From assembly GCF_030013595.1 (NCBI RefSeq), contig NZ_CP122768.1: 64,000 bases of DNA; one strand, given 5' to 3'. Within the stretch, counting starts at the first letter, position 1, and each line of letters starts with the position of its first letter. Below the pieces are notes generated by a model that did no database searches, was not told the DNA's origin, and saw only the letters and a program-made list of their open reading frames with translations. A program made the position numbers and the translations under genes. This DNA is from Escherichia coli. Lineage in GTDB: Bacteria; Pseudomonadota; Gammaproteobacteria; Enterobacterales; Enterobacteriaceae. This document shows, one piece after another, positions 39,633-58,534 of this stretch.

Positions 39633-40199
39633 ATGGCAAGTCAGGCTGAGGTCGCAGCACATTTACTGCTATCTGATCGTCGTCTGCGCGATCTTGCAAA
39701 ACTTCCGGGAGCTCCAGTCCCCCAAGGACGTGGCGATTGGGAACTTGACGCATGGCGCCATTTTTATATTCGTTATCTCCGGAGCAATAGACGCGACACA
39801 ACTAGTAATGACGAACCGGAAGCGGGGGACAATTCTCCCGAAAAAAATCGCGAGCAGTGGTTGAAAAATGAGGAACGGCAGGAGCGAATCCTGATGGCTC
39901 GCGTGAAACGCCGCATTCTTGCTAAACGCTACGCGCCAATTGAATTAATCAGCGTAGCTGTATCTCGCGTCGCAGTTGAATTACGTACCCGTGTCGAATC
40001 GTGGCCACCACGGTTAAAAAAGGTGTGGCCGGAAATGCCGCAGGAGGCGAGCAGTGTATTACGAGAGGAGCTGGCAATAGCCCTGAATGAACTGGCAGAC
40101 ATACGAATCGACTTCAGCGATTACGATGTCAGCGATATCGAACGCGATCTCGACAGGGTTGAATCCCTTGCGCGTGACGATACCGATGACGGGGGTTGA
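39633..40199 (+). CDS. Terminase small subunit (Nu1-like)
   Basis: 188-aa ORF immediately upstream of and overlapping the large terminase. Confidence 0.5.
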   Translation: MASQAEVAAHLLLSDRRLRDLAKLPGAPVPQGRGDWELDAWRHFYIRYLRSNRRDTTSNDEPEAGDNSPEKNREQWLKNEERQERILMARVKRRILAKRYAPIELISVAVSRVAVELRTRVESWPPRLKKVWPEMPQEASSVLREELAIALNELADIRIDFSDYDVSDIERDLDRVESLARDDTDDGG

Positions 40200-42048
40200 G
40201 TGGGCTGATAAACATTTTTATCTTCCCGAAGGCTCAAGCCATATTGCTGGCCACTGGACGACTCAGCCGGTCCAGGTAGTGATGTTAAATATGATGACGA
40301 ACGACGCGATAAAAATCGTGTCTGTTCGCAAATCAGCTCGTCTCGGTTATACAAAAATACTCGTCGCGGCGCTGCTCTATTTCGCTGAGCACAAAAAACG
40401 TAGTGCCGTGGTCTATCAGCCTATCGATGACGAATCGGATGGATTTGTCGCCGACGAGGTTGACCCCGCTATCGCCGAAATGCCGGTGATTCAGAAAATT
40501 TTCCCCGACTGGGATAAAAGCAACGAGCGTAACAATCTCCAGCGTAAAGAGATGAACGGGGCGATTATCGATTTTCGTGGCGCGAGTGCACCAGGAAATT
40601 TCCGGCGACTGACGAAACAGGTTGTCGAGGGTGACGAAGTCGACGGCTGGCCGCTGGAGGTTGCAAAAAAAGGCAAGGGCGAGGGCTCGCCCATCGAGCT
40701 GGCGCTCGTTCGAATTAAAGGTGCAGCGTACCCAAAAGCAATTTTCGGTTCGACGCCGACCGTTACCGGCAAAAGCCATATAGAAATGTTGGAAGACGCG
40801 GCTGATCTGACGTTTCGTTTTTACCTGAAGTGTCCGCATTGTGGCGAGGAGCAGGTCCTGGTATTTGGTTTCGACGGTATCGAATACGGTCTCAAGTGGG
40901 ATGACAGCCTGCAGACCAACGAGTCGAAATCGTCGTCCGCGTATTACCAGTGCTGCCACTGCCCGGAGCATTTTTACTATCGCGATCTCGAAAAAATGGA
41001 GCTCGCGGGGCGCTGGATAGCAGAGGACTGCACCTAGACGCGGGACGGCATTCATTTTTTTGATCACGACGGTGGTGTCGTTCGCGCGCCGAAACACGCG
41101 GCGATCGTGATAAACGCCCTGTATTCACTGAATCTCGACGGCTGGGGCGAGATTGTCAGCGAGTGGCTGAAAGCGAAAGGCGACCCACTCAAAGAAAAAA
41201 CGTTTCATAACACGACGCTCGGCGAGCTCTGGAGCGACGTGGCCAGCGAGCAGCTGGAGCACGATATTCTCGTTAATCGCCGGGAAAAATACGCCAGCCA
41301 GGTTCCTGACGGTGTTGTTTATATAACCGGCGGCATCGACTCTCAGACGTCCGGGCGCTACGAGTGTTACGTGTGGGGCTGGGGATCTGAGGAGGAGTGT
41401 TGGCTGATTGATAAAACAATCGTCCTCGGTCGCTACGACGAGGAGGACACGCTGCAGCGCGTCGACGGAGTGATTCGTAAACAATACCAGCGCAGCGACG
41501 GGACCACAATCGGCGTCAGTCGTTGGGCGTGGGATACCGGTGGTATAGACGCGCAGGTCGTTTATAACCGCTCGCTCAAACTCGGTCCGCTGTGGGTCAT
41601 TCCGATCAAAGGCGCGAGCTCATACGGCCAGCCGGTCGTAAATATGCCGCGTACCCGTAACGCGAATAAAGTTTATTTATCGTTAATCGGTACTGATACG
41701 GCAAAAGATTTGCTCGCGATGCGTCTGCCGCTGGAACCCGACCCTAAATCGGCGACACCGGGCGCAATTCATTTTCCCAACGACGATGAAATATTCGGCA
41801 CGACAGAGGCAAAACAGCTCGTCTCCGAAGTTCTGATCCCAAAACTCATTAACGGTCGCGTCGTTTATCGCTGGGACAATCAGGGCCGGCGAAATGAAGC
41901 GCTCGACTGCTGGGTGTACGGACTGGCGGCGCTGCGTATCAGTAAAATTCGTTTTCAGCTCAATCTCGAGACGCTCGCTGAGCAACGGAAAAAATCACAA
42001 AACAAACTGTCTCTCGAGGAGATGGCCAGAATGCTCGGAGGGAGCTAA
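40186..42048 (+). pseudogene. Terminase large subunit (lambda gpA-like) with in-frame amber codon at 41035..41037
   Basis: VEWADKHFYLPE..., CPHCGEEQ, ...TRDG..., GIDSQ, WGWG, NEALDC all align to lambda gpA as I recall it; TAG sits where gpA has Trp (IW-TRDG); reading continues in same frame; start ambiguous (40087 or 40186). Confidence 0.75.
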
Positions 42049-42281
42049 TGACGTCGCGCGAGGTTTTAACAGAACGACTGCTGGAAGCGGAAATCGCTCT
42101 GCACAAATTATTAACGGGTAAATCGACCGTGTCGCTGTCTCACGGCGATTCAGCAGGAAATAACCGGAGCTATCAATACTCGCAGGCGAGTATTGAGCAG
42201 CTCCGAACGTACATTATCGAGCTGAAATCACAGCTCGGTCTGAGTACGGGACGCCGTCGGCCCGTGGGAGTTCGATTATGA
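42048..42281 (+). CDS. Head-tail joining protein (lambda gpW-like)
   Basis: 77 aa, pattern similar to lambda W; between terminase and portal. Confidence 0.5.
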   Translation: MTSREVLTERLLEAEIALHKLLTGKSTVSLSHGDSAGNNRSYQYSQASIEQLRTYIIELKSQLGLSTGRRRPVGVRL

Positions 42282-43852
42282 CTGCTCCGCAGCAGCTGCT
42301 CGGGCCTGACGGTAAAACGCCACTACGCCGTTACGCGGGGTATAACGGCGGCGGTCCCGGTTTCGGTGGCCAGCTGATTGACTGGAACGCACCACAGCAG
42401 AGCGCCGACGCAGCACTGTTGCCGAATTTTTATCGCGGTAACGCGCGAGCAGACGATCTCGTTCGCAATAACGGCGTCGCGTCGAACGCCGTGCAACTGC
42501 ACCAGGATCATATCGTCGGCAATCTGTTTAAGTTGAGTTATCGCCCTAACTGGCGTTACCTCGGCATATCTCGCGAGGACGCCAGGGCGCTGGCGCGTGA
42601 CGTCGAGGTAGCGTGGACTGAATACGCCGAGGACCCTCACTGCACGATTGATATCGAGCGGAAACGGACGTTCACAATGATGATCCGCGAGGGCGTGGCT
42701 ACTCACGCTTTCAACGGTGAAACCTGCGTACAACCAGTCTGGGAGAGTAGTGCCGGCAGCGTTTTTCGGACGCGATTCAAAATGGTCTCACCGAAACGGA
42801 TTCGAAATCCGGGTTACGCAGCTGACACTCAATTTCGCCGCGCCGGTGTTGATATCGATAAAAACGGGGCCGCGGTCGGGTACTGGATAGCCGAGGATAC
42901 TTACCCTCTCGGCGGAGTCGGTAAATGCCGGCGTATCCCAGCACAGCTCAGCAGCGGCAGACACGCATTCATCCACATATTCGAGCCGCTCGAGGACGGA
43001 CAGACCCGCGGGGACAATATTTTTTACAGCGTCATGGAGCGCCTGAAAATGCTCGATACGTTGCAGCAAACACAGCTGCAGAGCGCCATCGTGAAAGCGA
43101 TGTACGCCGCGACAATCGAATCAGAGCTCGATAGCCAGCAGGCGTTTGAATATATCGCCGGCGCGGGTACTGATATCGATTCGAACCCGCTGAATTCGTT
43201 TATTCAGAGTTACGTGACGTACTACAACGGCGCAAATATCAAGCTCGGTGGCGTGAAAGTTCCCCACCTGCATCCCGGCGACAAACTCAGTTTACAGACC
43301 GCTCAGAATGCTGATGCTGGTTTTAGTTCACTGGAAAAATCACTCCTGCGTTACGTTGCAGCTGGCGTTGGCGCGTCATACGAAGAACTGAGCCGGGACT
43401 ACAGCCAGGTCAGTTACTCCAGCGCCCGGGCCAGCGCTAACGTCAGCTGGCGATTTTTCATGGGGCGTCGACGTTTTATCGCCGCGCGACAGGCGTCGCT
43501 GATGTTCTGCTGTTGGTTTGAAGAGGCGCTGGCACGCGGGATTATCACTCTGCCTAGCTCCGCGGTTCGGTCGTTTTATGAGGCGCGGAACTCCTGGACG
43601 AACGCGCTCTGGATCGGTGCTGGCCGAATGGCGATCGACGGACTGAAAGAAGTTCAGGAGAGCGCAATGCGAATCACGACTGGCCTCAGCACGTATCAGA
43701 ATGAACTGGCGCTGCAGGGGCAGGACTACGAAGAGGTTATGGAGCAACAGGAATACGAAATTCAGCGCCGGCGCGAAATGGGGTTGAGCGAGCCGTCCTG
43801 GTCTGTCTCTCATCCTTCAAATACCAACGATAACGGCTGGGGAGGTAACTGA
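42278..43852 (+). CDS. Portal protein (lambda gpB family)
   Basis: 524-aa ORF after terminase/W; lambda-type head gene order. Confidence 0.75.
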   Translation: MTAPQQLLGPDGKTPLRRYAGYNGGGPGFGGQLIDWNAPQQSADAALLPNFYRGNARADDLVRNNGVASNAVQLHQDHIVGNLFKLSYRPNWRYLGISREDARALARDVEVAWTEYAEDPHCTIDIERKRTFTMMIREGVATHAFNGETCVQPVWESSAGSVFRTRFKMVSPKRIRNPGYAADTQFRRAGVDIDKNGAAVGYWIAEDTYPLGGVGKCRRIPAQLSSGRHAFIHIFEPLEDGQTRGDNIFYSVMERLKMLDTLQQTQLQSAIVKAMYAATIESELDSQQAFEYIAGAGTDIDSNPLNSFIQSYVTYYNGANIKLGGVKVPHLHPGDKLSLQTAQNADAGFSSLEKSLLRYVAAGVGASYEELSRDYSQVSYSSARASANVSWRFFMGRRRFIAARQASLMFCCWFEEALARGIITLPSSAVRSFYEARNSWTNALWIGAGRMAIDGLKEVQESAMRITTGLSTYQNELALQGQDYEEVMEQQEYEIQRRREMGLSEPSWSVSHPSNTNDNGWGGN

Positions 43853-45159
43853 TGCCGTGGAATAATTTTCCGCACCTCGCCGCCCGGGCGTTCAATCAAC
43901 CGCTGTTGCTGGAGCCCACTTACGCGCGTGTATTTTTTTTGGCGCTGAGCGATCGGTTCGGTGCCAGACGACTGATTGATACAGCGTCCGGAGAGGTAAT
44001 GAGCAGCGACGAAATGAACGCGCTCGCGATGGGGTGGGACAGCAGCGAGCGATCGCGTCAGAAGTCGTACCGCGTGGAGCGTGGTATAGCCGTTCTGCCT
44101 GTTACCGGGACGCTGGTTCATAAATTGGGTTATATCAATCCGGTCAGTGGGATGAGCGGTTACGACGGAATCGCAAAACGTCTGCAGCAGGCGATTGCTG
44201 ATCCCGATGTTAAGGGGGTCTTGCTGGATATTGACTCCCCTGGCGGTGAGGTCGCCGGCGCGTTTGATACCGCTGATCTAATCGCCCGGGCGCGAGAGCA
44301 AAAACCGGTGTGGGCGCTGGCCAGCGATACGGCCTGCAGCGCCGCATATTTGCTGGCGTCAGCGTGTTCGCGCCGGCTGATAACGCAGACCGGCACGGTT
44401 GGTTCAATCGGTGTTCTGATGGCCCACCGCTGTGTCGAAAAGGCGCTGGAGATTGCCGGCGTTGACGTGACACTGATTTACGCCGGCGCGCACAAAGTCG
44501 ACGGTAACCCGTATTCCCAGCTGCCTGACGACGTTCGCGACGAATTCCAGCTGAGTATTAACAGCACGCGCGAGCAGTTCGCGCAAAAAGTCTCGGATTA
44601 TACCGGTCTGAAAAAATCCAGGGTGCTGGCCACGGAGGCCGCAGTATTTACCGGCGCAGACGCGATCAAATCTGGTCTCGCTGATCAACTCGTTAATTAC
44701 GCAGACGCTATCGCAGTGATGGCCGACGCACTGAAACCAAAAATGGAGCGATTTATGCCAGGTACAGAAACCACGGCGGAGACCACGACAACAGAACAAA
44801 CCGCGGACACGTCCACGGTCGCGCCGGTTGTGTTAAACACGGAGCAGATTCGCACGGACGCCGCATCGGGTGAACTGGCGCGCGTAATGGCCATTATCAA
44901 CTGCCCCGAAGCTGTCGGTCGCGAAGCACAGGCAAAAGCGCTCGCCGGCGTCCCCGGGATGACCGTCGAGCAGGCGCAGGTGGTCCTCGCGGCAGCACCG
45001 CAAACGGCGCAGGCGCGGACAGAAACGGCGCTCGATACACTAATGAGCACTGAATCACCGGCAACGATTCAGGATGCCGGCAGCACTACGGCAACAGGAA
45101 CAACCGCAAACGTCTCGATGCTCGTCGCGGCAGGGCGTTCAATTTTAGGGGATGAATAA
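43852..45159 (+). CDS. Head maturation protease / scaffold (lambda gpC-like, S49 family)
   Basis: 435-aa ORF after portal with ClpP/SppA-like region (GVLLDIDSPGGEVAG...). Confidence 0.65.
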   Translation: MPWNNFPHLAARAFNQPLLLEPTYARVFFLALSDRFGARRLIDTASGEVMSSDEMNALAMGWDSSERSRQKSYRVERGIAVLPVTGTLVHKLGYINPVSGMSGYDGIAKRLQQAIADPDVKGVLLDIDSPGGEVAGAFDTADLIARAREQKPVWALASDTACSAAYLLASACSRRLITQTGTVGSIGVLMAHRCVEKALEIAGVDVTLIYAGAHKVDGNPYSQLPDDVRDEFQLSINSTREQFAQKVSDYTGLKKSRVLATEAAVFTGADAIKSGLADQLVNYADAIAVMADALKPKMERFMPGTETTAETTTTEQTADTSTVAPVVLNTEQIRTDAASGELARVMAIINCPEAVGREAQAKALAGVPGMTVEQAQVVLAAAPQTAQARTETALDTLMSTESPATIQDAGSTTATGTTANVSMLVAAGRSILGDE

Positions 45160-45488
45160 TGACCACAGAAACGTATAGCCCAGATGATTTTATTCTGGGA
45201 CCCGATCTCGTTGTGACGACCGTCGGTCATTTTCAGGGCGGGATCAACGTACCCCGGCTGACGCCGGTCATGGTGGATGCTACCGCGGGGTCGTTTAAAG
45301 TGTGGGACGGCTCAGTCGGTAAAGCTGTCGGCCTTACGGCCACTGCGGTCAATACGGGCTCCAGTACTGTAGACTGCTCGTACTATAAATCAGGATCGTT
45401 CCGTTATACGGCGATTAACTGGGGGACGGTTACCGACGTAGCTAAACGCAAATCAGCGTTTGCTGGTACGCCGATCAGCGTCAGCTGA
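45159..45488 (+). CDS. Head decoration protein (gpD-like)
   Basis: 109-aa ORF between protease and major capsid gene; terminator hairpin follows at ~45509-45533. Confidence 0.5.
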   Translation: MTTETYSPDDFILGPDLVVTTVGHFQGGINVPRLTPVMVDATAGSFKVWDGSVGKAVGLTATAVNTGSSTVDCSYYKSGSFRYTAINWGTVTDVAKRKSAFAGTPISVS

Positions 45489-45547: not shown

Positions 45548-46582
45548 ATGAGCGATTCGTTTACTACGTCAGAACTGATTACCGCAACGCAGCAGGTATT
45601 TAAGTTCAATCCGTTGTTTTTAAGATTGTTTTTCCGTGAGACCTATACGTTTAAGAGCGAAGAGGTTTTTCTGGATAAAATCCCGGGAAAAGTGAACATG
45701 GCCGTGTATTGCGCGCCGATGATCACCGGCAAAGTTGACCGCACTCGCGGCTATTCAACGAACCATTTCAAACCGGGTTACACGAAGCCGAAGCACACGA
45801 TCAATCCGAATATGAGCATCAAGCGCTCCGCCGGTGAGCAGATTGGCCAGCCGGAAATGCCGGTCGAACGTCGTGCAAAAATCATCATGCAGAATCTGCT
45901 CGACGAGGAGCTCAGCATCAGCCAGCTCGAAGAGTTCCAGGCAGTGCAGGCGGTTCTGTACGGTAAGTACACCGTCTCCGGCAGCAATATCGAGACCTAT
46001 GAGATCGACATGAGCCGCAGCGCGACGAATAACGTTACTCAGTCCGGTTCGACAGCCTGGTCTACGCAGGACGCGGAAACGTATGACCCGAGCGACGATA
46101 TCGAATCCTACGCGGACCTCGCCTCCGGTGCAGTCAACGTCATCATTATGGACGGTAAAGCCTGGAAGCAGCTTAAACGCTTTAAAAAATTCTGGACGGC
46201 GCTGGATACGCGTCGCGGCTCAAACAGCCAGCTCGAGATCGCGCTGAAAAACCTGGGCGACGTTGTTAGCTTTAAGGGCTATTACGGTGACACAGCGTTG
46301 TTTGTCTACAAAGGACAATACATCGATCCGGAGACAGGCACTGAAAAGCGTTATATGCCGGATAGCACGATGATTTTGGGCAACACAAAAAATCGCGGAC
46401 TCCGCACTTATGGCGCAATCCAGGACGAAGACGCTTTGAAAGAGGGTATCAGCGAGGCCACGCGCTATCCGAAAGTCTGGACCACTACCGGTGATCCGGC
46501 AGTGACGCAGACAATGACCCAATCCGCGCCAGCAATGGTGCTCACGGACGCTGATGCGTTTGTCGTCGTAAAAATCGCGTAA
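45548..46582 (+). CDS. Major capsid protein (lambda gpE-like)
   Basis: 344-aa ORF in major-capsid position; terminator hairpin after stop (~46583-46604). Confidence 0.75.
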   Translation: MSDSFTTSELITATQQVFKFNPLFLRLFFRETYTFKSEEVFLDKIPGKVNMAVYCAPMITGKVDRTRGYSTNHFKPGYTKPKHTINPNMSIKRSAGEQIGQPEMPVERRAKIIMQNLLDEELSISQLEEFQAVQAVLYGKYTVSGSNIETYEIDMSRSATNNVTQSGSTAWSTQDAETYDPSDDIESYADLASGAVNVIIMDGKAWKQLKRFKKFWTALDTRRGSNSQLEIALKNLGDVVSFKGYYGDTALFVYKGQYIDPETGTEKRYMPDSTMILGNTKNRGLRTYGAIQDEDALKEGISEATRYPKVWTTTGDPAVTQTMTQSAPAMVLTDADAFVVVKIA

Positions 46583-46616: not shown

Positions 46617-47030
46617 ATGAGCACAAAAACAGAATTGCTGGCGCGCATTGACGATCTGAGCGCTCAGCTCGGTCGCGAATTACCGCGCAGCGGGACTATT
46701 GCTGAACTGGAATCAATCGTCGCTGGCGCTGAGTCAGAGCTCGATATTTTGAACGAGCAATCCGGTGACGCGAGTGATGCCAACATTAATGCGAACGCAT
46801 CAGATGAAACTGATGATGACAGCGCAGAACAACCGTCAATCGCGAGCACGACGTCACAACCAGAACTGTCTCCCGCTACGCGCCGCGTTAAGCTGCGTAA
46901 CACGCTGGATGTATATCACTACGTGAACGGGCGTCGCGTTCGCGAGATTGTTGCCGCTGGCCGTGAAATTGTTGTTGATTCACCAGAGGTTGCAGACCTC
47001 ATCGCAGCTGATCACGTTTACGCTCTATGA
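46617..47030 (+). CDS. DNA packaging protein (gpFI-like)
   Basis: 137-aa acidic ORF after capsid gene. Confidence 0.45.
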   Translation: MSTKTELLARIDDLSAQLGRELPRSGTIAELESIVAGAESELDILNEQSGDASDANINANASDETDDDSAEQPSIASTTSQPELSPATRRVKLRNTLDVYHYVNGRRVREIVAAGREIVVDSPEVADLIAADHVYAL

Positions 47031-47407
47031 GCTACTACGATGACCTCCGGGCCGGCGATGAGGAGATGATTCTGGAGTGGGGACGGCCCGTTAAATTACG
47101 CGGTAAAACCGACCCCATTATCGCTATTTTCAACGAGCCTTACGCGCGCGTTGACGTTCCTCACGCTGGTTTTATTACCGGTACAGTAACGAGCCTGACA
47201 GCGCTCTCAGACGACGTCGCCGGCATTGTTGCGCGTGACGTCGTCCGGGTTCCAAAGCAGCGCAGCATCGAACCTGACGGCTCTGTTACCTGGTCTGGCT
47301 GGACCGATTACGTGGTTAAAGAGTCTCAGCCAGACGGTGTCGGGCTCACGAATATTTTTTTAGAGCCTCATACGTCCAGCGAAAACAGCGAGTATTCAAA
47401 ATACTAA
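47027..47407 (+). CDS. Head-tail joining protein (gpFII-like)
   Basis: 126-aa ORF overlapping FI stop. Confidence 0.45.
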   Translation: MSYYDDLRAGDEEMILEWGRPVKLRGKTDPIIAIFNEPYARVDVPHAGFITGTVTSLTALSDDVAGIVARDVVRVPKQRSIEPDGSVTWSGWTDYVVKESQPDGVGLTNIFLEPHTSSENSEYSKY

Positions 47408-47437: not shown

Positions 47438-48118
47438 GTGGCCGATTTACGTAGTAACGCGCAGATGTTCGATATCGATGTTTCGGCGCTGGAGCAGCTC
47501 AGAGTCGAAATCAGCGCGACGCAACATCAAATGTTAATGGCATACAACAGGGCGCTGAACCGAACTGCAAAACATATGCACCGAATTTCAGCAGGAATGA
47601 TTTTGACTGCACTGGCAGCTAAAAATCATAAGGCCGTAGATAAACGAATCAAACCGTTCATTAAGCGCCGCGATTTTACAAAAGAAGGGGCAGGAGATCT
47701 GAGTAGCGTAAAACTCTGGTACGGCCTGAACGATTTCCGTGTATCTGAGCTAAAGGGGCGATTACAAAATCCCAGGAAGCAGAAGCAGCCTCGCAATCCA
47801 GAGACCGGTCAATTTTTGAAAACAAAAAAAGGCGCTCGAGGGGCAACTTTTACACCCAAAAGTGCAGGGCTGGCGATGCTGAGCTGGCCCGATTCATTCG
47901 TAGCGAAACGCTACGGTGCGAAAAGTGTCTGGATTCGACTGGCTCGCGGAGGAATCGAAGAGGCTCGCGTACCGGTGCACGAAGCGCTGGAGGATGCTAT
48001 CGATGATTATATTTTTGAAAACATTGGCACCGTGTTCATGGGTTTTTTTGAACAGGACTTGCGTGGTCGCGTGAAAGGTAATGTCCACGTAGACCCAAAA
48101 ACAGGGAAACGATTATGA
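47438..48118 (+). CDS. Hypothetical virion morphogenesis / tail completion protein
   Basis: 226-aa ORF between head and baseplate genes. Confidence 0.35.
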   Translation: MADLRSNAQMFDIDVSALEQLRVEISATQHQMLMAYNRALNRTAKHMHRISAGMILTALAAKNHKAVDKRIKPFIKRRDFTKEGAGDLSSVKLWYGLNDFRVSELKGRLQNPRKQKQPRNPETGQFLKTKKGARGATFTPKSAGLAMLSWPDSFVAKRYGAKSVWIRLARGGIEEARVPVHEALEDAIDDYIFENIGTVFMGFFEQDLRGRVKGNVHVDPKTGKRL

Positions 48119-48651
48119 GCGGACTGGATGCATTTGACGAATATCTTGATCGCGTTAAAGGCGCGGTTTTACAAATACCGTTCATCAAAACATTCGGCAT
48201 TTATCCAGAAATTCCGGCAGGATTTGAAACGCCAGCTCTGTTCCTGGAAATCAGCAACTGGTCACAGAGTGACGAATCGGTTCCAGGCTCAATTCAGTCA
48301 GTCGAGCTGTCGTGTAATTTGTATTTGCTGCGTGAGTTTGCGGCTGATCAGTACGGACTGAAATCGCAGAATGCAGCGCTCTATATGACGAGCTGGATTA
48401 ATGGGCGAATGTTTGGTGCCGGAACTAAACCAGCAAAATTCAGCGACGCGGAACCGTGTGACTGGATTAAAAACGGGCAGTCAGTCGGTTCGCATTCAGT
48501 TCAGTGCGTGTCGTTCACGCAGGTTGTAGGCGTTGGTCCAGATATTTTCGATTATCCCTCACAGGGAACCCTGAAAAATATATACGTCGGAATAGCGCCA
48601 GATATCGGCGCAGAACATGAGGGCGACTACTATGGCCCAATCGGACGATGA
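48115..48651 (+). CDS. Hypothetical virion morphogenesis protein
   Basis: 178-aa ORF, translationally coupled to neighbours. Confidence 0.35.
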   Translation: MSGLDAFDEYLDRVKGAVLQIPFIKTFGIYPEIPAGFETPALFLEISNWSQSDESVPGSIQSVELSCNLYLLREFAADQYGLKSQNAALYMTSWINGRMFGAGTKPAKFSDAEPCDWIKNGQSVGSHSVQCVSFTQVVGVGPDIFDYPSQGTLKNIYVGIAPDIGAEHEGDYYGPIGR

Positions 48652-49534: not shown

Positions 49535-49878
49535 ATATGCTTGGAATGGACCGTAACACTGGTAAACCTTTATCCGGGGTTGACCACATTTGTCAGTCTA
49601 TCGTTGATATTTTAACGACCCCGCTGGGAACACGTGTAATGCTGCCGGAATATGGAAGCAAATTATTTGACCTCGTTGATAATCCCACTGATCCGTCGCT
49701 TGCTATGAGAATAATGATGGAAAGTGCAGGAGCAATAGCACGCTGGGAACCACGCGTCAGAATTGACAGAATAAATGTGTTAGCAGTGGATATCGGGAAA
49801 ATAACAATATTAATTATCGCAACAGATATCGAAACACAACAGCGATTAGAGTTTAATAATATGGAGCTGATATTTTGA
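49489..49878 (+). CDS. Baseplate protein (P2 gpW-like)
   Basis: 129-aa ORF after V. Confidence 0.55.
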   Translation: MSGRGNTTTEPTNGVNMLGMDRNTGKPLSGVDHICQSIVDILTTPLGTRVMLPEYGSKLFDLVDNPTDPSLAMRIMMESAGAIARWEPRVRIDRINVLAVDIGKITILIIATDIETQQRLEFNNMELIF

Positions 49879-50795
49879 TAACATTAACAGTTCAGAATTC
49901 GATAGTGAAAACTATTGATATGAGTCTGCTGCCGCCGCCCGCGTTTGTTAAAACCCCGCTATTTTCAGATGTTAAATCTAATCTATTGTCAGAGCTGCAG
50001 ATATTATATCCACAATTTAACGCACTCCTGGAGTCAGACCCGGCCGTTAAACTGCTGGAAATAGTTGCATACAGAGAAATTATCATTACAGCGCGGGTAA
50101 ATCAGGGGATGCTCGCGGTATTACTCGCGTTTGCAAAAGAGTGGGACCTCGACCAGATTGGCGCTAATTTTGACTGCCTGCGGCTGTTGATAACGCCAGC
50201 TAATCGTGATGCGATTCCCCCGACTGAGGCGGTTTACGAGAGTGACGACGAGTATCGTCATCGCATACAGCTATCGTGGTACGCGCGGAATACTGCCGGC
50301 AGTACAAACGCGTATAACTATTTCGCGCTATCGAGTGATCCCGACGTTCTGTCAGCTCAGGCATACGGACCGCCGGTGACACAACCAGGGTACGTCGATA
50401 TGTATGTCCTGTCGCGAACCGGCGACGGCACTCCGCCTCAATCACTACTGAATACAGTTAATGCAGCGCTGTCTCCTGATGACACCCGACCGCTAACCGA
50501 TTTCGTTACAGTAAAACCTGCGTCGAACCTGAATTACCGGGTTGAGGCCGTTATCGTAGCCGGGCTTGGACCCGACCAGAACGTTTTGCTTAACGGTGCT
50601 CAGAGCGATTTGGCGATATATGTGGATACGCAGCATAAAATCGGAGCGACGGCAGCTCTGTCAGGAATTTACGACGCGATACATCGTGACGGCACTGAAC
50701 GTGTGATTCTGATATCGCCAACAGAGGACGTGATTGCTGGCGTCGGACAGGCTCCGCACTGCACTGAAATTAAACTCAGCGTGCAAATGGGGTAG
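49875..50795 (+). CDS. Baseplate protein J
   Basis: 306-aa ORF in J position. Confidence 0.65.
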   Translation: MITLTVQNSIVKTIDMSLLPPPAFVKTPLFSDVKSNLLSELQILYPQFNALLESDPAVKLLEIVAYREIIITARVNQGMLAVLLAFAKEWDLDQIGANFDCLRLLITPANRDAIPPTEAVYESDDEYRHRIQLSWYARNTAGSTNAYNYFALSSDPDVLSAQAYGPPVTQPGYVDMYVLSRTGDGTPPQSLLNTVNAALSPDDTRPLTDFVTVKPASNLNYRVEAVIVAGLGPDQNVLLNGAQSDLAIYVDTQHKIGATAALSGIYDAIHRDGTERVILISPTEDVIAGVGQAPHCTEIKLSVQMG

Positions 50796-50797
50796 CT

Positions 50798-51424
50798 ATG
50801 GCAAGTCAAAGTGTGCTGCCTCCGAACGCAATAACTCCCGAGAGGGCGCTTGAGGTTGTTTTATCTCACGTCGGCGATCTGCCTGGCGATATTCGAATTA
50901 TTAAAAATCCCGATTTGTGCCCTGCAAATCTGTTGCCGTGGCTGGCGTGGGAGTACGCGGTCACCTACTGGAACCCCGACTGGAGTGAGCAGCAAAAACG
51001 CGAAATTATTAAGGCCGCAGCCTGGCAAAATAAATATCGCGGCACGCGTGGTGCCGTCGAACGAGCATTATTAACGGTGGGATTTGAGAGCAAAATGAGA
51101 GAGTGGTTTGAAGCCACGCCCAGGGACGACCCGTATACATTCGCAATTAAAATATATCTGCTAAAAAGTATAGGGTTAGATTTAGAACTATTGAATACCT
51201 TTATTGCACAAATATTTGATGCAAAAAATTGCCGTTCCTTATTAAAAGAAATAAATTTTGAAACGGGTGTCGATGGTGAGTTTTTTATAGCTGGTGCACC
51301 TTACGCGAAAATAGGCGTAAATATTCCAGCAGACGGCGACGGCGGTGTAAAAATTAACGGCGGGCTATATATATCAGGCTCACCAATTGTTAGTTTAAAT
51401 GTGGAGATAGGGCCAAATGGCTGA
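50798..51424 (+). CDS. Tail protein I-like
   Basis: 208-aa ORF in I position. Confidence 0.55.
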   Translation: MASQSVLPPNAITPERALEVVLSHVGDLPGDIRIIKNPDLCPANLLPWLAWEYAVTYWNPDWSEQQKREIIKAAAWQNKYRGTRGAVERALLTVGFESKMREWFEATPRDDPYTFAIKIYLLKSIGLDLELLNTFIAQIFDAKNCRSLLKEINFETGVDGEFFIAGAPYAKIGVNIPADGDGGVKINGGLYISGSPIVSLNVEIGPNG

Positions 51425-52595
51425 AAATAAAATTTACGCAGTACTGACAGACCGGGGGGCACAACTTGAGGCCGCGGCATTAGCATCAGGTGTGCCGGTA
51501 GTACTGAATAAATTCGTTATTGGTGACGCGAACGGAAACGACGACGTAACACCGGACCCGTCACGAACAGTATTAATTCACGAAACGTATCGCGGAGATA
51601 TTAAATCGTCAGAAAATAGCGGCAATCAGGTTATTTTTACACTGTACGTACCACCGGAAACCGGCGGTTATACTATTCGAGAGGTTGGAATATTAACAGA
51701 TAAAGGCGAGCTGTACTCTGTAGCACGCTCGCCGGATATTTTAAAACCCACGGACAGCAACGGCGCGCTGATTTCAATCACATATAAATACACTCTCGCG
51801 GTGTCCAGCGCGTCTACTGTTAACGTTGTCATTGATAACAGTAGTGGAATGAGCCAAGCAGATGCAGATAAGCGTTATTTGCAGATAAGCAAAAATTTAT
51901 CTGAAATTAAAGATAAGGGCGCGGCGGCGCAACAAGCTGGGCGAGAAAATCTCGGCGTTAACTTAAATAACTATTATAAAAAAGAAGAGATAGATAATAA
52001 ATTTTCAGAAGTGGATAATGAGTTAAATAATATAAACCCAGTCATGACGGTTAACCATTTACAGCCTGATTCTGACGGCAATGTTAATGTGGATTCGGGA
52101 TACGCAAAACTGGGCGGCGACGGGGCATTTAATTTAGTTGCTCTGTTTCCGCAGCAATCTGAACCTGACGCGACAAATAAAACCATGCCTGGTTACCGGC
52201 TTTCTTCTGTGATATTTAAAGCGAATCCCAGCCTTGAAATTTTGGCTCATGGATATTTATTTGGATTGTGGGAATTAATTGCCATTCCGTTAGTGACAGT
52301 ATCTAGCGGATACGAACTGAATGGCGGTGTTTCTGGTGCTGTAATGGCTCGGCGAATTCCTGTTGGCAATATAAACAAATTCAGCAATATAAAAAAACCT
52401 CATTATCCTCAGGGCCGTGGCGTGGTGGGAACGTATGAAACTGCCTACATAAACATTGAATGCGATATTGAGGGAGTTGGAACCGGACTAATATTCACGA
52501 CAAATAATAATGATGTTGAGGAATACGGTCGTCAATTATATCAAAACGCAATAAACGGTATGTACGGCACAGTAACAAACGGTTATCAAAGTTGA
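51417..52595 (+). CDS. Tail fiber protein (P2 gpH-like N-terminal domain)
   Basis: 392 aa; N-terminus (...VIGDANGNDD...TVLIHETYRGDI...VPPETGGYTIREVGILTDKGELYSVA) follows the P2 H N-terminal pattern. Confidence 0.6.
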   Translation: MAENKIYAVLTDRGAQLEAAALASGVPVVLNKFVIGDANGNDDVTPDPSRTVLIHETYRGDIKSSENSGNQVIFTLYVPPETGGYTIREVGILTDKGELYSVARSPDILKPTDSNGALISITYKYTLAVSSASTVNVVIDNSSGMSQADADKRYLQISKNLSEIKDKGAAAQQAGRENLGVNLNNYYKKEEIDNKFSEVDNELNNINPVMTVNHLQPDSDGNVNVDSGYAKLGGDGAFNLVALFPQQSEPDATNKTMPGYRLSSVIFKANPSLEILAHGYLFGLWELIAIPLVTVSSGYELNGGVSGAVMARRIPVGNINKFSNIKKPHYPQGRGVVGTYETAYINIECDIEGVGTGLIFTTNNNDVEEYGRQLYQNAINGMYGTVTNGYQS

Positions 52596-52607
52596 TGGAG
52601 GTAATAA

Positions 52608-54107
52608 ATGAGCACTAATTTTTTGCACGGCCCCCGCACGCTCGAATACGACGACGGAACAAAAGAGATCAGCACGGTCGATATTTCCGTTATCGGTATC
52701 GTCGGCACTGCCCCGGATGCGAGCGCCCCCACATGCGCATCACTACTATGGGGATCAGAACTCGCAGATAATCTTGTTCAGTTTTCCACTGTCATGCCTG
52801 GGGCCGACGGAAACAACTGGATTGTCGAAATCGTCAATCTCGGTATTAACGGGAATGTAGCAACTCCAGGATACAGCACACTGCCCGACGGTTCGAGAAA
52901 ATTAACAATGATCACGGACGGTGCCATGACTCCGTCAAAAATGTACGATCAGAACCAGCAGTATAAAGAAGGACTCCAGATTGGAGAATATATTAACGTC
53001 ACATTCGGTGGTGATCACGCAGGAACGGGGACTGTATTCGCGCTCCCCCCAACAAATTTATCCGGTGGTAAAGACGAATCGTTCAAATATAATGTTCCGA
53101 CGTTAATTGCAGGCAGTCAAAAAAAAGCTGGATTGCTCGGTGGGTCTGGCACCCTTCCTCCCGCTGTATCTGAAATCCTAAATCAGGATGACGCTATTAT
53201 TGTTGTTGTCCGCGTTGAAGAAGACAGTGACGAAACAAAAATGAGGCAGAACGTCGTTAACGGGATTAACGCATTGTTGACGTCTGCACAAATAAATCAA
53301 GTGACTCCGAGAATTTTAATTGCTCCAGATTATAGTGCTAACGATTATATCGCTGAACAACTTGAAGTGGTGACAAATAAATTACGAGGTGTTGGGTATA
53401 TCGATTCACCGCGAGGCGCTACGCCTGCTGACGTTGTGAATCGTCGTCAGAGATATGGCGCCAGGATGGAAATTTTACGCCCTCGCGTTTATTCTACGAG
53501 TGATGTCAGTGGGTTATCTCGTCCGTATTCAGCTATCGCTGCTGGTTTGCGAGCCAGAATTGATAATGAAAAAGGATTCTGGTGGAGTAAATCGAACCAG
53601 AATATCTACGGAGTTACAGGGCTTGAACAAGTCGACGATTTTATTATTGGTGAGACAAACTGCACAGCGAACCTGTTGAACGCCAGTCAGGTCAGCACAA
53701 TTATTCGCTATGACGGGTTCCGGCACTGGGGTAACTATCTGTGTAGCCTCAGTCCCCAATGGTCCTTTGAATGCGTTCGTCGAACAGCTGACGTAATTGA
53801 GGATTCTATAGCCCGGGCAATGATGACCGATTTTATTGATCGTCCGATAGATCTGCACCTCGGAACAGACGTTGTCGAGTCGATAAACGCATATCTGCAC
53901 AAATTAGAGGAGCAGGGCGCGATTAACGGAGGGCGTGCGTGGTTAGACGGTGAGCTGAATACAAAAGAAAGTCTGGCCGCTGGTAATCTTTATATTAATG
54001 TTGATTTTGGTCCGAAATCTCCGGCACAAACAATTACGTTAATGTACCGCATTAATAATGACTATACAGTTGAAGCACTGGCCTCACTTTTTAAAGAAAC
54101 AGCCTGA
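52608..54107 (+). CDS. Contractile tail sheath protein
   Basis: 499-aa ORF followed by tube gene; myovirus sheath position. Confidence 0.75.
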   Translation: MSTNFLHGPRTLEYDDGTKEISTVDISVIGIVGTAPDASAPTCASLLWGSELADNLVQFSTVMPGADGNNWIVEIVNLGINGNVATPGYSTLPDGSRKLTMITDGAMTPSKMYDQNQQYKEGLQIGEYINVTFGGDHAGTGTVFALPPTNLSGGKDESFKYNVPTLIAGSQKKAGLLGGSGTLPPAVSEILNQDDAIIVVVRVEEDSDETKMRQNVVNGINALLTSAQINQVTPRILIAPDYSANDYIAEQLEVVTNKLRGVGYIDSPRGATPADVVNRRQRYGARMEILRPRVYSTSDVSGLSRPYSAIAAGLRARIDNEKGFWWSKSNQNIYGVTGLEQVDDFIIGETNCTANLLNASQVSTIIRYDGFRHWGNYLCSLSPQWSFECVRRTADVIEDSIARAMMTDFIDRPIDLHLGTDVVESINAYLHKLEEQGAINGGRAWLDGELNTKESLAAGNLYINVDFGPKSPAQTITLMYRINNDYTVEALASLFKETA

Positions 54108-54124
54108 TAATTCGGAGAGTAAAT

Positions 54125-54637
54125 ATGTCAGATAGCAACGCTTACCGCGCGTTTGCGCTATTCGTGCAAGGTGAACGGGTTTTAAATTGTACTGAATATA
54201 CTCCTGTTGATATGAAAATAATCGAGGACGAGTTTAAAACAGGCGCGATGGATACAGCCATAACACTGGATGGGGGGATGGAGAAAATGTCAGCCAGTTT
54301 TAAAGTTTCTGGTTCTGATTCTGGTGTTATGAGCTATTTCGGGTTAATACCGGGAGTCAAGACGCGGTTTGAAATTCGTAGTGCGTACACAGACTCCTAT
54401 GGAATAAATTTTGAGCGTATTGATACCTACGAGGGACTTATTACGGCAATCACTGATGACGCTCAGGGGACTGATTCAAAATCGTCAGTGGGGCAATCAG
54501 TAACGATTGCTCCGAGCTATTATAAACGAGTTCAAAATGGACGAATTATTTACGAAATTCATCCTGCAAAAATGAAGCGTGTTATCAACGGTGTTGATGT
54601 TCTTGCAGGCGTCGCTCGAATCCTTCATGTATATTAA
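54125..54637 (+). CDS. Tail tube protein
   Basis: 170-aa ORF directly after sheath. Confidence 0.7.
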   Translation: MSDSNAYRAFALFVQGERVLNCTEYTPVDMKIIEDEFKTGAMDTAITLDGGMEKMSASFKVSGSDSGVMSYFGLIPGVKTRFEIRSAYTDSYGINFERIDTYEGLITAITDDAQGTDSKSSVGQSVTIAPSYYKRVQNGRIIYEIHPAKMKRVINGVDVLAGVARILHVY

Positions 54638-54649
54638 AAGGTAAGTAAA

Positions 54650-54931
54650 ATGGAATCCTTATTAGACAGTATGACTATTACGCTCTCTCGCCCGTTTATT
54701 ATTAAGGGCGAGAGTTGCGATACAATTACTATTCGCGAACCAAAATTACGCGACCGCATTATGTTCAGTAACGATAAAAGTGGTCTTGAAGAGCGGACAG
54801 CGACAATGCTGGCGCGCCTGGCAAATCTGGAGCGAGATGATTTATATGCACTGCCTGCGTGCGATTACGATCAAATGGAGGCCGCGTTTAACGAACTGGT
54901 AAAGCCCCCGAAAGGCCGACGTCAGATATAG
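54650..54931 (+). CDS. Tail assembly chaperone-like protein
   Basis: 93-aa ORF between tube and tape measure. Confidence 0.4.
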   Translation: MESLLDSMTITLSRPFIIKGESCDTITIREPKLRDRIMFSNDKSGLEERTATMLARLANLERDDLYALPACDYDQMEAAFNELVKPPKGRRQI

Positions 54932-55039
54932 TTATTCTGATTCCGTTTATTGCGAAAAAACTTGCCATCCCGCCCGATACGCAAATGGACCTGCCGTATC
55001 GGGTTTTTAATTTCTATGTAAACGAGGTCATGAAAACCG

Positions 55040-56680
55040 ATGGCTATTTCTCAAAACTTTAAAACTCAGGTTGTATTCGGGGGGCGAATAGACCCGTCGT
55101 TTCGGCGTGGTACAACAGAACTCAACGATGCAATTCGGCAGACGTCGTCTACTGTCGGAAAATTAACGAAAAGCCAGGATAAATTAAAAGACAAAATCGC
55201 AGCAATGAAACTGGCGGGTAAAGACGTTTCTGATTTATCTGCTCAGTATCAAAAGCTGGACCGTCGGATAAAAGCGACAACACAGGACCAGGAAGCTCTG
55301 AATACTCAGCTCGCTAAAAAACAGCGGCTGGAGAAATGGACGGGGCGCGCAAAAGGGGCTGCAAAATGGGGAGGGCGAGCGGCTGCAAGAACGATAAAGG
55401 CAACAGGAAAAGGCATCAAATGGGGGACGCTTGGCGCGGCGGGGCTCATTGGCGGTGCAGCTGCTGGTGCGCTGGCAATGAATGCAGAGACGTCAGAAAA
55501 ACTCGGTCTGGCGAAGTCCTACGGCGTTGGCGTCGAAAAATACGCCGCGTGGGACAATATCGGTAAAGCAGCCGGGCTTAACGGCGAAAATATCGGGGAT
55601 TTGTCAGAAGAACTTACAAATAAAATCGGCGAAATCGGAAACGAAAAAAACCTGAATCCCATGTTGTTTCAAATCGGCCTGACGAAAAAACGAATGGCTA
55701 GCTGGGATCGGGAAAAACAGTTTAATGAGGTTATGCGTCGCATCTCTGAAATGAAAGATGAGAAGCAAGCGGCGAGTCTTGCTGACCAGCTCATGGGGGG
55801 CGAAGCTAATAAAATCATGACGTATATGAAGGCCACTGGTAAAAGTTGGGAACAGACAATGGCCGACGCGCAAAAATCGAATCTGTTAACAAAAGAGGGT
55901 GCGGAAGGAGCGGCGCGTGCGCATGTATCAGTGACAAATCTGTGGGGCTCTATTACGTCGGGGCTTGCAGATACACTCGGTAAAATCGGGGGGGAACTCG
56001 CGCCGACGTTTGACTCAGTACGCGAAACATTTACAGCATGGTTTAAGGACAATCAGGGCGGATTTGTCAGCACAATTACTGAGTGGGTAAAGCCCGAAAG
56101 CATGAAAAAAATGTGGGAGGGGATAGTCAGTTTTGGCGAAGCTTGCGTTAAATTCGGAAAAATAATTTGGGCAGTAGCAAAAAAACTTGAGTGGTTAATT
56201 CCGGACGAGAAAACAGACGAGGAACAGCGCGTATATAACGAAGAATATAATAAGGCGTATCAGGAATTCATGGATAGTGGTGGTAAATATTCACCGAATC
56301 CCGGACAGGCAGCAGATAATGTAGCAAAAGCAAAAGCCGACGAAGCCGTAGATAATATGCGACACCCTGAACGTCTTGCTCGTGCAAAATCACAGGCTGA
56401 ATCAATGCTCTCATTTGCTAACCCGTTTACTGGATTAATAAATAAAAACTCAACGCCTGAATCACAAAACTCAGCAACGTTGAATATTGACGCGCTGAGA
56501 CAGGCAGTCGCAACTCCTGCTCCAGAGCAAAACAATAAAATTGAAATCAATATTGTCGGAGCAACTGATCCGCAATCAATACAGCAATCTGCAGCATCGG
56601 GGGTGCTCGATGGGTTGAGACAAGTTGCGAGTTCGTACAATCGTGGCGCGATGTTTGATAAACCAGCTCCGGCGGGGTGA
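55040..56680 (+). CDS. Tail tape measure protein
   Basis: 546 aa, Ala/Gly/Lys-rich with coiled-coil-like repeats; position before U-X-D. Confidence 0.65.
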   Translation: MAISQNFKTQVVFGGRIDPSFRRGTTELNDAIRQTSSTVGKLTKSQDKLKDKIAAMKLAGKDVSDLSAQYQKLDRRIKATTQDQEALNTQLAKKQRLEKWTGRAKGAAKWGGRAAARTIKATGKGIKWGTLGAAGLIGGAAAGALAMNAETSEKLGLAKSYGVGVEKYAAWDNIGKAAGLNGENIGDLSEELTNKIGEIGNEKNLNPMLFQIGLTKKRMASWDREKQFNEVMRRISEMKDEKQAASLADQLMGGEANKIMTYMKATGKSWEQTMADAQKSNLLTKEGAEGAARAHVSVTNLWGSITSGLADTLGKIGGELAPTFDSVRETFTAWFKDNQGGFVSTITEWVKPESMKKMWEGIVSFGEACVKFGKIIWAVAKKLEWLIPDEKTDEEQRVYNEEYNKAYQEFMDSGGKYSPNPGQAADNVAKAKADEAVDNMRHPERLARAKSQAESMLSFANPFTGLINKNSTPESQNSATLNIDALRQAVATPAPEQNNKIEINIVGATDPQSIQQSAASGVLDGLRQVASSYNRGAMFDKPAPAG

Positions 56681-57105
56681 CAATGAGTGATGCAATAAAC
56701 GGTGCTGAAGACATCATGCTCGGCTTGGGTGATTTCATTTTTGCTATATCAACAGTAGCGTACAACAAACTGCAACGTAGTGACGCCTGGCGCTGGGCTC
56801 AGCAAACACGATTCGGGAAAAACGACGCGTTGCAGATAACTGGACGACCGAACCCCACTATCACGATTGATGGAAAAATAAACGCGTTATTTCTTGACGG
56901 GTGCGGCGTTGGCCTGTTGACGGATTTGCGGGCATTGGGAAACACGGGAGAACCCCAGCAGCTAGTGCTGGGGACTGGGGAAGTGAAGGGGTACTGGGTG
57001 CTGCGGGAACTAACTGAAACGCAAAACAGCTTTTTGATGGGCGGAACCCCAAAATCGCAGGACTTTTCACTCACGCTCGAATATTATGGAGTTTCGCTAG
57101 ATTAA
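56677..57105 (+). CDS. Tail protein (P2 gpU-like)
   Basis: 142-aa ORF overlapping tape-measure stop. Confidence 0.5.
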   Translation: MTMSDAINGAEDIMLGLGDFIFAISTVAYNKLQRSDAWRWAQQTRFGKNDALQITGRPNPTITIDGKINALFLDGCGVGLLTDLRALGNTGEPQQLVLGTGEVKGYWVLRELTETQNSFLMGGTPKSQDFSLTLEYYGVSLD

Positions 57106-57262
57106 TACAAAATCAAGCGCTACCAGAGCACTTAACAAGTATAAAAATAAAAAAAACTACGAACATAAATGTAAAACAACCTGATGGTATTTTTTTGACG
57201 CCGAAATACTAATACCTCTCCGACTACTAAAATTAATTCTCATTATGAAATCCTTTTAATTA

Positions 57263-57487
57263 ATGGGGCCCCAAATGATTACATACACTACACGGGACGG
57301 TGACCGTCTCGATCAGATCTGCCTTGCTGTCTACGGGAGAACAGCAAAAACGACAGAAACCGTGTTATATCAGGTTTTAAATTACGGCGTAACGGATATG
57401 TGTGCCGTGTTTCGTGCAGGAGAAAAAATTGTTTTACCAGAAATCGACCCCGAACCGGTTAAAAAAGAAACGCAATTATGGGATTGA
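57263..57487 (+). CDS. Tail protein X-like
   Basis: 74-aa ORF between U and D. Confidence 0.5.
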   Translation: MGPQMITYTTRDGDRLDQICLAVYGRTAKTTETVLYQVLNYGVTDMCAVFRAGEKIVLPEIDPEPVKKETQLWD

Positions 57488-57490
57488 TGA

Positions 57491-58534
57491 ATGAGTGATT
57501 ACGTAAATACTGGCGTGGAAGCATGGAAGCCCAATTTTTATATATCTGCTGATAATGAAAACATCACGGATAAAATAAGAAAAGGTTTGATCAATATCAC
57601 GCTCACAGATTATGGTGGTTCGAGTAAACAGACAGACGAATTACGCGTAGCAATCGTTTCTGAAACTCTGAAAATTCCGGCCCGCGGAGTAAAAATCAGT
57701 ATTGGGCTCGGTTTCGGTAATCAGATAATTGATAAGGGTGTATACATCGTTGATGGTGCGAGCAGTGGCGGTGAACCCCGGGTAGTTGATTTCACAGCAA
57801 AAGCAGCGCCGATGAACGCATCAAAAGGCTCTCCGACAGTTCAGAGCAAAAAAACTCGCTCCTGGAGCGACGTCACTGTCAGCAATATCGTTGCAACAAT
57901 AGCGAGCGATAACGGGCTAAAACCACGCGTATCAAAGCGGTTTGCAGACAATATTATCACGCAACTCGATCAAGTCGGCGAGTCAGATATGCACCTGATG
58001 TCGAGACTAGCAACACGATTCGATGCGGTGAGTAAACCCGCGGGAGGGTACTGGATATTCCTGCCGCGCGGCGCGGGCGAATCTGTTAGCGGAGCGCCGC
58101 TTCAGCACTACACGCTCACGCGTCGTGATAACTCCAGCTGGGGTTATTCACGAAACGGACAAAGTGGCGATAGTGGTAGCGGTGGCGAAAATCCGGAACC
58201 GACGTATCTGATTAAATATCACGACACAGCAACTGGGCAGATCAAAGAATTGCGGACAGGTAGTGGCGGCGATCCTGTCATTGAATGGCCGACAGTTGAG
58301 CCGTCGCTCGACGCAGCGAAAGAAGCTGCACCAGGGCTCAAGGGCGGTGCAGCTAAAAAAGAGTTCTCTATGACGTACACGACGCCAGCGACGCTCGATT
58401 TAGTGTCGCTGACAGCAGAATGCAAAGTCACAACTCAAGGATTCGGGACCGAGGAGGACCGGGACTGGACTATCAACACGCTGAGCCTGACGCTTGCTGA
58501 AAACGGCTTTTCGGTTCGACTGTCACTGGAGTAA
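57491..58534 (+). CDS. Tail protein D-like (late control D)
   Basis: 347-aa ORF, end of the contractile-tail gene set. Confidence 0.65.
   Translation: MSDYVNTGVEAWKPNFYISADNENITDKIRKGLINITLTDYGGSSKQTDELRVAIVSETLKIPARGVKISIGLGFGNQIIDKGVYIVDGASSGGEPRVVDFTAKAAPMNASKGSPTVQSKKTRSWSDVTVSNIVATIASDNGLKPRVSKRFADNIITQLDQVGESDMHLMSRLATRFDAVSKPAGGYWIFLPRGAGESVSGAPLQHYTLTRRDNSSWGYSRNGQSGDSGSGGENPEPTYLIKYHDTATGQIKELRTGSGGDPVIEWPTVEPSLDAAKEAAPGLKGGAAKKEFSMTYTTPATLDLVSLTAECKVTTQGFGTEEDRDWTINTLSLTLAENGFSVRLSLE

Follow-up and report, generated by a model that had tools for sequence, protein, structure and literature searches.

How does a contractile-tailed prophage equip its host-recognition fibres when no tail-fibre assembly gene accompanies them, and what is the place of a second fibre gene, of lambda Stf type, at the end of its late operon? 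These questions are raised by a 64,000-nucleotide (nt) stretch of an Escherichia coli genome (contig NZ_CP122768.1, assembly GCF_030013595.1), hereafter called the window, in which an initial annotation made from the letters alone had seen lambda-like head genes joined to a P2/Mu-like contractile tail. It is likely, in our judgement, that this locus is the late operon of a prophage at leuZ that combines a lambda-type head, a P2-type tail and two short fibres, each ending in the N-terminal domain (N-domain) of a Tfa-type tail-fibre assembly chaperone fused in cis. Gene calls were checked by listing open reading frames (ORFs) and by Pfam and PHROG scans, and were upheld, coordinates included; the virion genes of the window all lie on the + strand. 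Structures are AlphaFold2 (AF2) monomer predictions.

The baseplate fibre and its terminal module

The first fibre (51417-52595; 392 amino acids, aa) is a short H-like baseplate fibre that matches Phage_tail_fib (PF12571) at residues 4-143 (E 1e-31) and phrog_5075 over its full length. Its parts are a P2 gpH-type N-terminal domain, a short helical shaft, a beta tip and a fused chaperone N-domain; the mean predicted local distance difference test score (pLDDT) of its model is 71.6. No separate tail-fibre assembly gene (G) comes after it: the sheath gene follows, starting 13 nt past the stop codon. When the whole 64-kb window was searched by tblastn, with nine chaperones of Tfa type plus seven related queries, only two modules were found, both of them N-domains fused to fibres, and the C-domains of Tfa were without matches anywhere in the window. 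The C-termini of both fibres were likewise devoid of Pfam matches to the conserved helical C-domain (Caudo_TAP or Phage_tail_APC) at E<=1. The earlier observation that a chaperone is missing after H holds as far as a separate gene is concerned; what had escaped notice is that the N-domain of such a chaperone is present as part of the fibre itself.

This module makes up the last ∼75 residues of the fibre (52368-52592) and is homologous to two small proteins. Residues 318-387 of the fibre share 50% identity (E 7e-19) with residues 2-64 of P0051, a protein whose Caudo_TAP match lies further on, at residues 72-139; the other protein, of 129 aa, is encoded in related prophages of the ST131 type and shares 36% identity with P0051 across 120 residues. 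In the ST131-type majority the gene for the 129-aa protein is situated between the fibre and sheath genes, an arrangement present in 427 complete genomes, and the fibre itself is 394 aa long; as a separate gene it is missing from the window, from GF131, from E24377A and from one Salmonella relative. An alignment of the fibres reflects this difference: those with a separate downstream gene for a 128-129-aa protein end at '..RIA/RTA', while those without the small gene run ∼75 residues further. Homology links the extension both to the N-terminal ∼70 residues of the small proteins and to the last ∼65 residues of proteins with the Stf N-terminal (Stf-N) domain, with the invariant positions C..F..D..G..A..G.YG; directly compared by BLASTP, the C-termini of the two fibres of the window match with E 4e-8. 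In tblastn the match of the 129-aa protein seemed to extend into the start of the sheath gene (52596-52745), which was judged to be a spurious in-frame read-through and was discarded.

A word-indexed search with the 129-aa protein gave six matches and was replaced by a full HMMER search with a profile of the module, which found 1419 cluster representatives. The architectures of the best 150 of these 1419 were counted. The module is at the N-terminus of small proteins in 62 (median length 145 aa) and at the extreme C-terminus of larger proteins in 47 (median 388 aa); a further 40 are either short proteins that stand alone or fragments, and one, P0083, is a complete fusion in which an Stf-N domain, collagen, the module and a Caudo_TAP C-domain follow one another in this order. 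Chaperone families were recognized in 24 of 54 small proteins (Caudo_TAP in 10, Phage_tail_APC in 11 and DUF4376 in three), and in four of the five matching members checked individually the chaperone-family match lies C-terminal of the module. The large module-bearing proteins carry fibre domains, namely phage_tail_N, Phage_tail_fib, collagen and CBM_5_12.

Proteins of the Tfa type have been described as modular: their variable N-domain attaches to the distal fibre and remains part of the virion, and a conserved helical C-domain drives trimerization (PMC9608196). Since the extension of the window fibre matches the N-termini of the small proteins, and given this modularity, the fibre, as judged by homology, carries a chaperone N-domain in cis without the C-domain. 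Among Tfa-type chaperones (Mu gpU and lambda Tfa; families Caudo_TAP and Phage_tail_APC), it is the N-terminal fibre-binding domain of family members that is homologous to the modules of the window; in contrast to these chaperones, the modules lack the helical C-domain and are covalently part of the fibre. For the 129-aa protein and for the module, NCBIfam and Pfam had no match, and the PDB, searched by sequence with the former and with the H-like fibre, yielded nothing useful.

The H-like fibre gene also contains a 33-nt segment (52221-52253) that is identical (100%) to sequences within annotated clustered regularly interspaced short palindromic repeat (CRISPR) arrays of ∼55 complete E. coli genomes. 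In a published survey, 28 E. coli spacers match phage vB_EcoM-705R4, which belongs to the same lineage (PMC12736100).

The Stf-type fibre after gene D

The initial annotation had placed a fibre-like gene with an Stf-type N-terminus after gene D, and the match of its product to phage_tail_N (PF08400) bears this out. The gene (58540-59487; 315 aa) starts 6 nt past the stop codon of D. Residues 1 to ∼90 form a collar domain of lambda Stf type, which a PDB sequence search matched to residues 4-91 of lambda Stf (E 6e-8). The module occupies residues 236-302, at the C-terminus (59245-59445), where the A4 profile matches residues 236-302 of P0001 (E 5e-22). In the AF2 model, whose mean pLDDT is 89.6, a beta-sandwich (residues 2-71) is followed by a helix (94-127), a beta domain (145-224) and the module (245-290). 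The N-terminal part has the Ig/transthyretin-like adaptor fold of myophage neck fibres such as XM1 gp40 and A-1(L) gp82. With XM1 gp40, a protein of 839 aa, sequence similarity is only marginal (E 0.024).

Compared with the Stf of Ur-lambda, which has 774 aa, a long coiled-coil, a gp37-like distal part and a separate Tfa partner, the window protein is short and has none of these three features, its shaft being represented by the single helix 94-127. The possibility that the gene is a truncated remnant was considered and rejected, full-length homologues being conserved: proteins of 297-331 aa with 43-91% identity are found in E. coli and Salmonella. Such homologues are encoded downstream of D both in a related prophage of E. 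coli, at a different attachment site (yodB/zinT), and in Salmonella, accompanied there in one case by a split fibre and a small gene. This Stf-type gene is a recurrent and conserved member of the module. In some relatives (L006 and P0029) the second fibre has a different C-terminal domain, which is cassette exchange of the kind typical of receptor-binding proteins. Presence or absence of the gene corresponds to a clean cassette of ∼1.06 kb located right after the D stop codon (window 58538-59595 versus L002 26916-26942). The window copy of the Stf-N protein is identical to a database protein, and its C-terminal tail is the same as that of P0002; a promoter and terminator scan around D and the Stf-N gene produced nothing informative.

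Between the second fibre and the right end of the prophage is a gene for a 139-aa lipoprotein-like protein (59733-60152, + strand; phrog_890, E 3e-52), whose N-terminus resembles a signal peptide with a lipobox. It is kept in relatives that lack the second-fibre gene and is a probable moron.

The virion module and its prophage

The head genes, which the initial annotation had listed as Nu1-A-W-B-C-D-E-FI-FII, match lambda families from A to FII; the Nu1 assignment did not survive. The terminase small subunit gene terS (39633-40199) matches phrog_57 over residues 1-186 (E 2.2e-39); this generic terS family was its only match and, with no Pfam family at E<=0.01, it has no match to the Nu1 family, in which it differs from lambda. 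A frameshifted and truncated second small-subunit pseudogene is annotated just upstream (39086-39227) in a near-identical relative, a sign that the late operon may begin at an old recombination joint. The gpA-type large subunit gene terL (40174-42048) bears GpA_ATPase (PF05876, E 3e-48) and GpA_nuclease (PF20454, E 4e-64), one on each half of an ORF that is interrupted by a TAG codon, as described below. The next seven genes are in lambda order, and all seven of their Pfam families exceed the curated cut-offs: the gpW head-tail joining protein (42048-42281; gpW, E 6e-16), the lambda-family portal gpB (42278-43852; Phage_portal_2, E 8e-91), a gpC-like S49 prohead protease/scaffold (43852-45159; Peptidase_S49, E 7e-39), the head decoration protein gpD (45159-45488; HDPD, E 1e-7), the major capsid protein gpE (45548-46582; Phage_cap_E, E 2e-58), the DNA-packaging protein FI (46617-47030; Packaging_FI, E 3e-10) and an FII-like head-tail attachment or head closure protein (47027-47407; Phage_attach, E 6e-9; phrog_82, head closure Hc1).

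The claim that V follows FII directly turned out to be wrong, since two overlooked genes lie between them: one for a tail completion or Neck1 protein (47438-48118; phrog_27, E 8e-42), without a Pfam match, and one for a conserved virion-module protein (48115-48651; phrog_1072, E 2e-49). From V onwards the proposed order, from the baseplate genes through the H-like fibre, sheath, tube and tape measure to U, X and D, is supported by Pfam and PHROG matches. The baseplate genes encode the spike/assembly protein V (48617-49534; Phage_base_V, E 3e-12; phrog_9992), the wedge protein W/gp25 (49537-49878; GPW_gp25, E 9e-16), J (49875-50795; Baseplate_J, E 2e-20) and tail protein I (50798-51424; Tail_P2_I, E 5e-37). 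Downstream of the H-like fibre are the tail sheath FI (52608-54107; Phage_sheath_1 and Phage_sheath_1C), the tail tube FII (54125-54637; Phage_tube, E 8e-22) and the tail assembly chaperone E (54650-54931; Phage_TAC_7, E 2e-15). Past E, the -1 frame stays open over 54892-55062 and overlaps the start codon of T, which is compatible with an E+E' frameshift product (putatively 54650-55062); no canonical slippery heptamer was identified. The tape measure protein T (55040-56680; 546 aa) was assigned from phrog_3654 (E 3e-250) and from its position between E and U, and the tail genes end with U (56683-57105; Phage_P2_GpU, E 3e-31), X (57275-57487; Phage_tail_X, E 7e-16) and the baseplate hub D (57491-58534; phrog_52, E 1e-92, with a weak Phage_GPD match under the curated cut-off). 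In several relatives a small superinfection-immunity gene (Imm_superinfect) is inserted on the opposite strand between U and X (L006 7482-7682, L011 7315-7554); the window has there only a 170-nt gap (57105-57275).

The join of a lambda-like head to a P2-like contractile tail is confirmed, gpE being 57% identical to gpE of lambda and N15 (tblastn) and the tail genes being of P2 type. Of the label 'P2/Mu-like', the first half fits all tail families, while no Mu-specific family appeared among the Pfam and PHROG matches, and the gene order follows P2/phiCTX instead of Mu. The families and order V-W-J-I-H...FI-FII-E-T-U-D are shared with P2 and phiCTX (Peduoviridae), as is the N-terminal domain of H. 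Those phages differ from the window in having X before the holin gene (it lies between U and D here), a chaperone gene of G type and the head genes Q-P-O-N-M-L, where the window has no G, a lambda-type head and an H of 392 aa; a U-X-D order expected for phiCTX was refuted by the phiCTX annotation. The tail of lambda, with its tip genes V, M, L, K, I and J, has no counterpart in the window, whose tail is contractile.

Closer parallels are Hafnia phage yong2 and Citrobacter phage Chris1, in which lambda-type terL-W-portal genes (A-W-B) are joined to a contractile tail with the U-X-D order, as in the window. Their sheaths, 46-47% identical to that of the window, are the closest outside the lineage, and two small hypothetical genes precede V in them, a likeness in position. 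They differ in having a fused Clp-protease/capsid gene, in having W-J-I-H after D (before the sheath gene in the window) and in their long fibres, which are accompanied either by separate Tfa genes or by an invertible cassette for fibres. Nearer still are vB_EcoM-705R4 (ON470624) and the prophages of the ST131 type, which share gene order, attachment site and lysis genes with the window and are 93% identical to it in nucleotides across 96% of the module. They lack a gene after D; the window is distinguished from them by the fused fibre, the extra Stf-N fibre and an amber codon in terL.

The host element is a lambdoid prophage of ∼46 kb inserted in the 3' end of tRNA-Leu (leuZ) and adjoining yecA. 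ARAGORN places the tRNA-Leu gene at 14566-14652; a 126-nt direct repeat, attL (14597-14722), covers the 3' 56 nt of this tRNA-Leu(taa) plus downstream sequence, and its second copy, attR (60374-60499), with one mismatch to attL, marks the right end before yecA, at a site annotated as tRNA-OTHER in a near-identical relative. Integrase, replication genes, the Q antiterminator and lysis genes are annotated upstream in HCP5S3_I2, which is 99.9% identical. Among 5426 complete E. coli genomes, 453 (8%) have the virion module, most copies being 93% identical; it is also present in four GenBank phage records (vB_EcoM-705R4 and relatives), and Salmonella, too, has relatives. Given these numbers and the similar joins in yong2 and Chris1, the head/tail mosaic is a common and stable prophage lineage already in the databases and not an oddity, and a literature search on leuZ prophages retrieved nothing specific to it.

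The terL gene, which had been taken as intact, is broken between the domains for ATPase and nuclease by an in-frame TAG (41035-41037); the same codon is TGG in both relatives compared, GF131 and HCP5S3_I2. The nearest two relatives, 99.9%-identical pig isolates, have an ISVsa5 insertion in terL near window position 40734. The other virion ORFs have lengths equal to those of relatives or within 1-2 codons of them. Because of the TAG codon the present copy is probably packaging-defective, unless the amber codon is suppressed or is a sequencing error.

Two further features lie upstream within the prophage. An ORF of 352 aa (30024-31082, + strand) matches NsnA in PADLOC (E 4e-41) and PD-T4-2_A, and its counterpart in a relative is annotated as DUF262; situated in a stretch of low G+C content (28-34 kb, GC 0.36-0.43), it is a probable anti-phage defence cargo gene. 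An insertion sequence (IS) of the IS3 family (26593-27905) is 95% identical to an IS3 copy in HCP5S3_I2 and by coordinates maps within a region that is annotated in that strain as a gene of the LprI family. The IS positions differ, the 99.9%-identical relative having ISVsa5 in yecU and terL and IS3 copies elsewhere.

Proposed arrangement of the fibres and its alternatives

We propose that terS, gpA, W, B, C, D, E, FI and FII would build a lambda-type head and connector, to which the two neck/tail-completion proteins and then V, W, J, I, H, sheath, tube, E/E', T, U, X and D would add a contractile tail of P2 type. Host recognition would be carried out by the two short fibres. The fibre encoded first would dock on the baseplate through its gpH-type domain, and the second would be held by its collar domain, of the kind that rings hexameric virion rings. 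In Ur-lambda, 12 copies of the Stf N-domain form a collar around the gpV-gpM junction (PMC12617516); the domain homologous to it attaches to the neck of myophage XM1 (PMC10457771). The module of the window contains neither V nor M families of lambda, and its tail is sheathed. Because the sheath would hide the tube, we infer that the second fibre most probably sits at the neck, by analogy with the homologous domains of XM1 and A-1(L). The shared module of ∼65-70 residues, fused in cis on both fibres and homologous to the variable tip-binding N-domain of Tfa, presumably caps the fibre tip and aids its folding, and it may contact the receptor. The receptor-binding arrangement is indeed non-standard, as the initial annotation suggested, in that two fibres have different anchoring domains; its other ground, an absent chaperone, gives way to N-domains fused on both fibres.

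Several observations weigh against this proposal. Its structural support comes from monomer predictions only. Foldseek with the model of the H-like fibre returned only a tail protein of HFTV1, with no structural link to the N-domain of Mu Tfa, and an hhalign comparison of the small-protein alignment with lambda Tfa had a probability of 8%, which is uninformative. Since no resemblance to the Mu Tfa N-domain was shown, the chaperone assignment rests on homology to the N-terminal parts of chaperones recognized by Pfam. Most members of the lineage do not have the second fibre, which is dispensable by that measure. Among 50,697 phage records the Stf-N domain had siphovirus matches only, all below 45% identity, and no similar sequence was found in any record of an isolated contractile-tailed phage. 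The junction of tube and gpM that the lambda collar wraps has no counterpart here. Finally, with a nonsense codon in terL and an IS insertion in the terL of relatives, the sub-lineage may be losing the ability to package DNA, or decaying.

Could the Stf-type gene be a non-functional relic of recombination with a lambdoid siphovirus prophage, and not a virion component? Its absence from the 427+ ST131-type copies and GF131, the full-length occurrence of the window-type gene in only two complete genomes and the purely siphoviral origin of similar N-domains in isolated phages would all agree with this. We regard it as very unlikely, though, because full-length homologues from Escherichia and Salmonella, at two att sites, keep their position after D, and because of the 6-nt spacing, the confidently modelled fold, the terminal module shared with the baseplate fibre and the alternative C-terminal domains, a swapping pattern typical of working receptor-binding proteins. 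If the protein is a virion component, it might still dock at the periphery of the baseplate or tail tip, like lambda Stf and the collar fibres of Bxb1, and not at the neck. Its closest structural and sequence match is Stf-N of lambda, a tail-tip protein, the tail collar proteins of Bxb1 match as well, and the gene adjoins that of the baseplate hub. Such docking seems to us rather doubtful: the ring junction wrapped in lambda would here be a sheathed tube without a gpM-type gene, and in XM1 and A-1(L), the two myophages for which homologous domains have been solved, it is to the neck that the domain binds.

As regards the terminal module, it could, as in T5 pb1 or endosialidases, serve as an intramolecular chaperone, be removed by cleavage once the fibre has folded and so be missing from the mature tip. 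The module is at the extreme C-terminus, past the conserved '..RI(A/P/D)' boundary where the split versions end, and Pam3 gp25 and Tfa-type chaperones have been likened structurally to C-terminal intramolecular chaperones (PMC9608196). No Peptidase_S74 or other autoproteolytic domain was detected, however, and mature virions of Mu and Ur-lambda reportedly still contain the N-domains of Tfa (PMC9608196), so we consider cleavage unlikely. More weight goes to the view, quite possible if not the one we favour, that the whole locus belongs to a decaying or domesticated prophage that can no longer package DNA and whose fibre arrangement now serves no function. The stop codon in terL, the independent ISVsa5 insertion in the same gene of the two nearest relatives and the IS3-family copy inside the prophage all point in this direction; against it, the lengths of the remaining virion ORFs are those of relatives or nearly so, and one G-to-A substitution may have arisen recently, may be suppressed or may be an error of sequencing. 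This view concerns the present copy only, not the design of the module.

Our preferred reading, a mosaic operon with two short fibres that end in fused N-domains, can be taken one step further, and here we are tentative. The lineage would be a two-fibre one, with an H-type fibre at the baseplate and an Stf-type collar moved to the neck; both fibres would fold without a chaperone acting in trans, and the captured Tfa N-domain would be their covalent, receptor-facing tip. If this is true, the conserved C-domain of Tfa would be dispensable, and the N-domains of Tfa would essentially be detachable fibre tips.

A chaperone N-domain fused in cis can go unnoticed in a fibre gene that is followed by no chaperone gene. 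With C-terminal fusions in about one third of the best 150 of the 1419 module representatives, this bears on the annotation and engineering of fibres, and the fused modules bear on whether the N-domains of Tfa truly belong to the receptor-binding tip. A lambda Stf-type collar domain inside a contractile-tail operon offers a tractable system in E. coli and Salmonella for the choice of ring partner by collar adaptors. Because the lineage is common (8% of genomes) and heavily targeted by E. coli CRISPR spacers (PMC12736100), its host-range determinants are of some ecological relevance.

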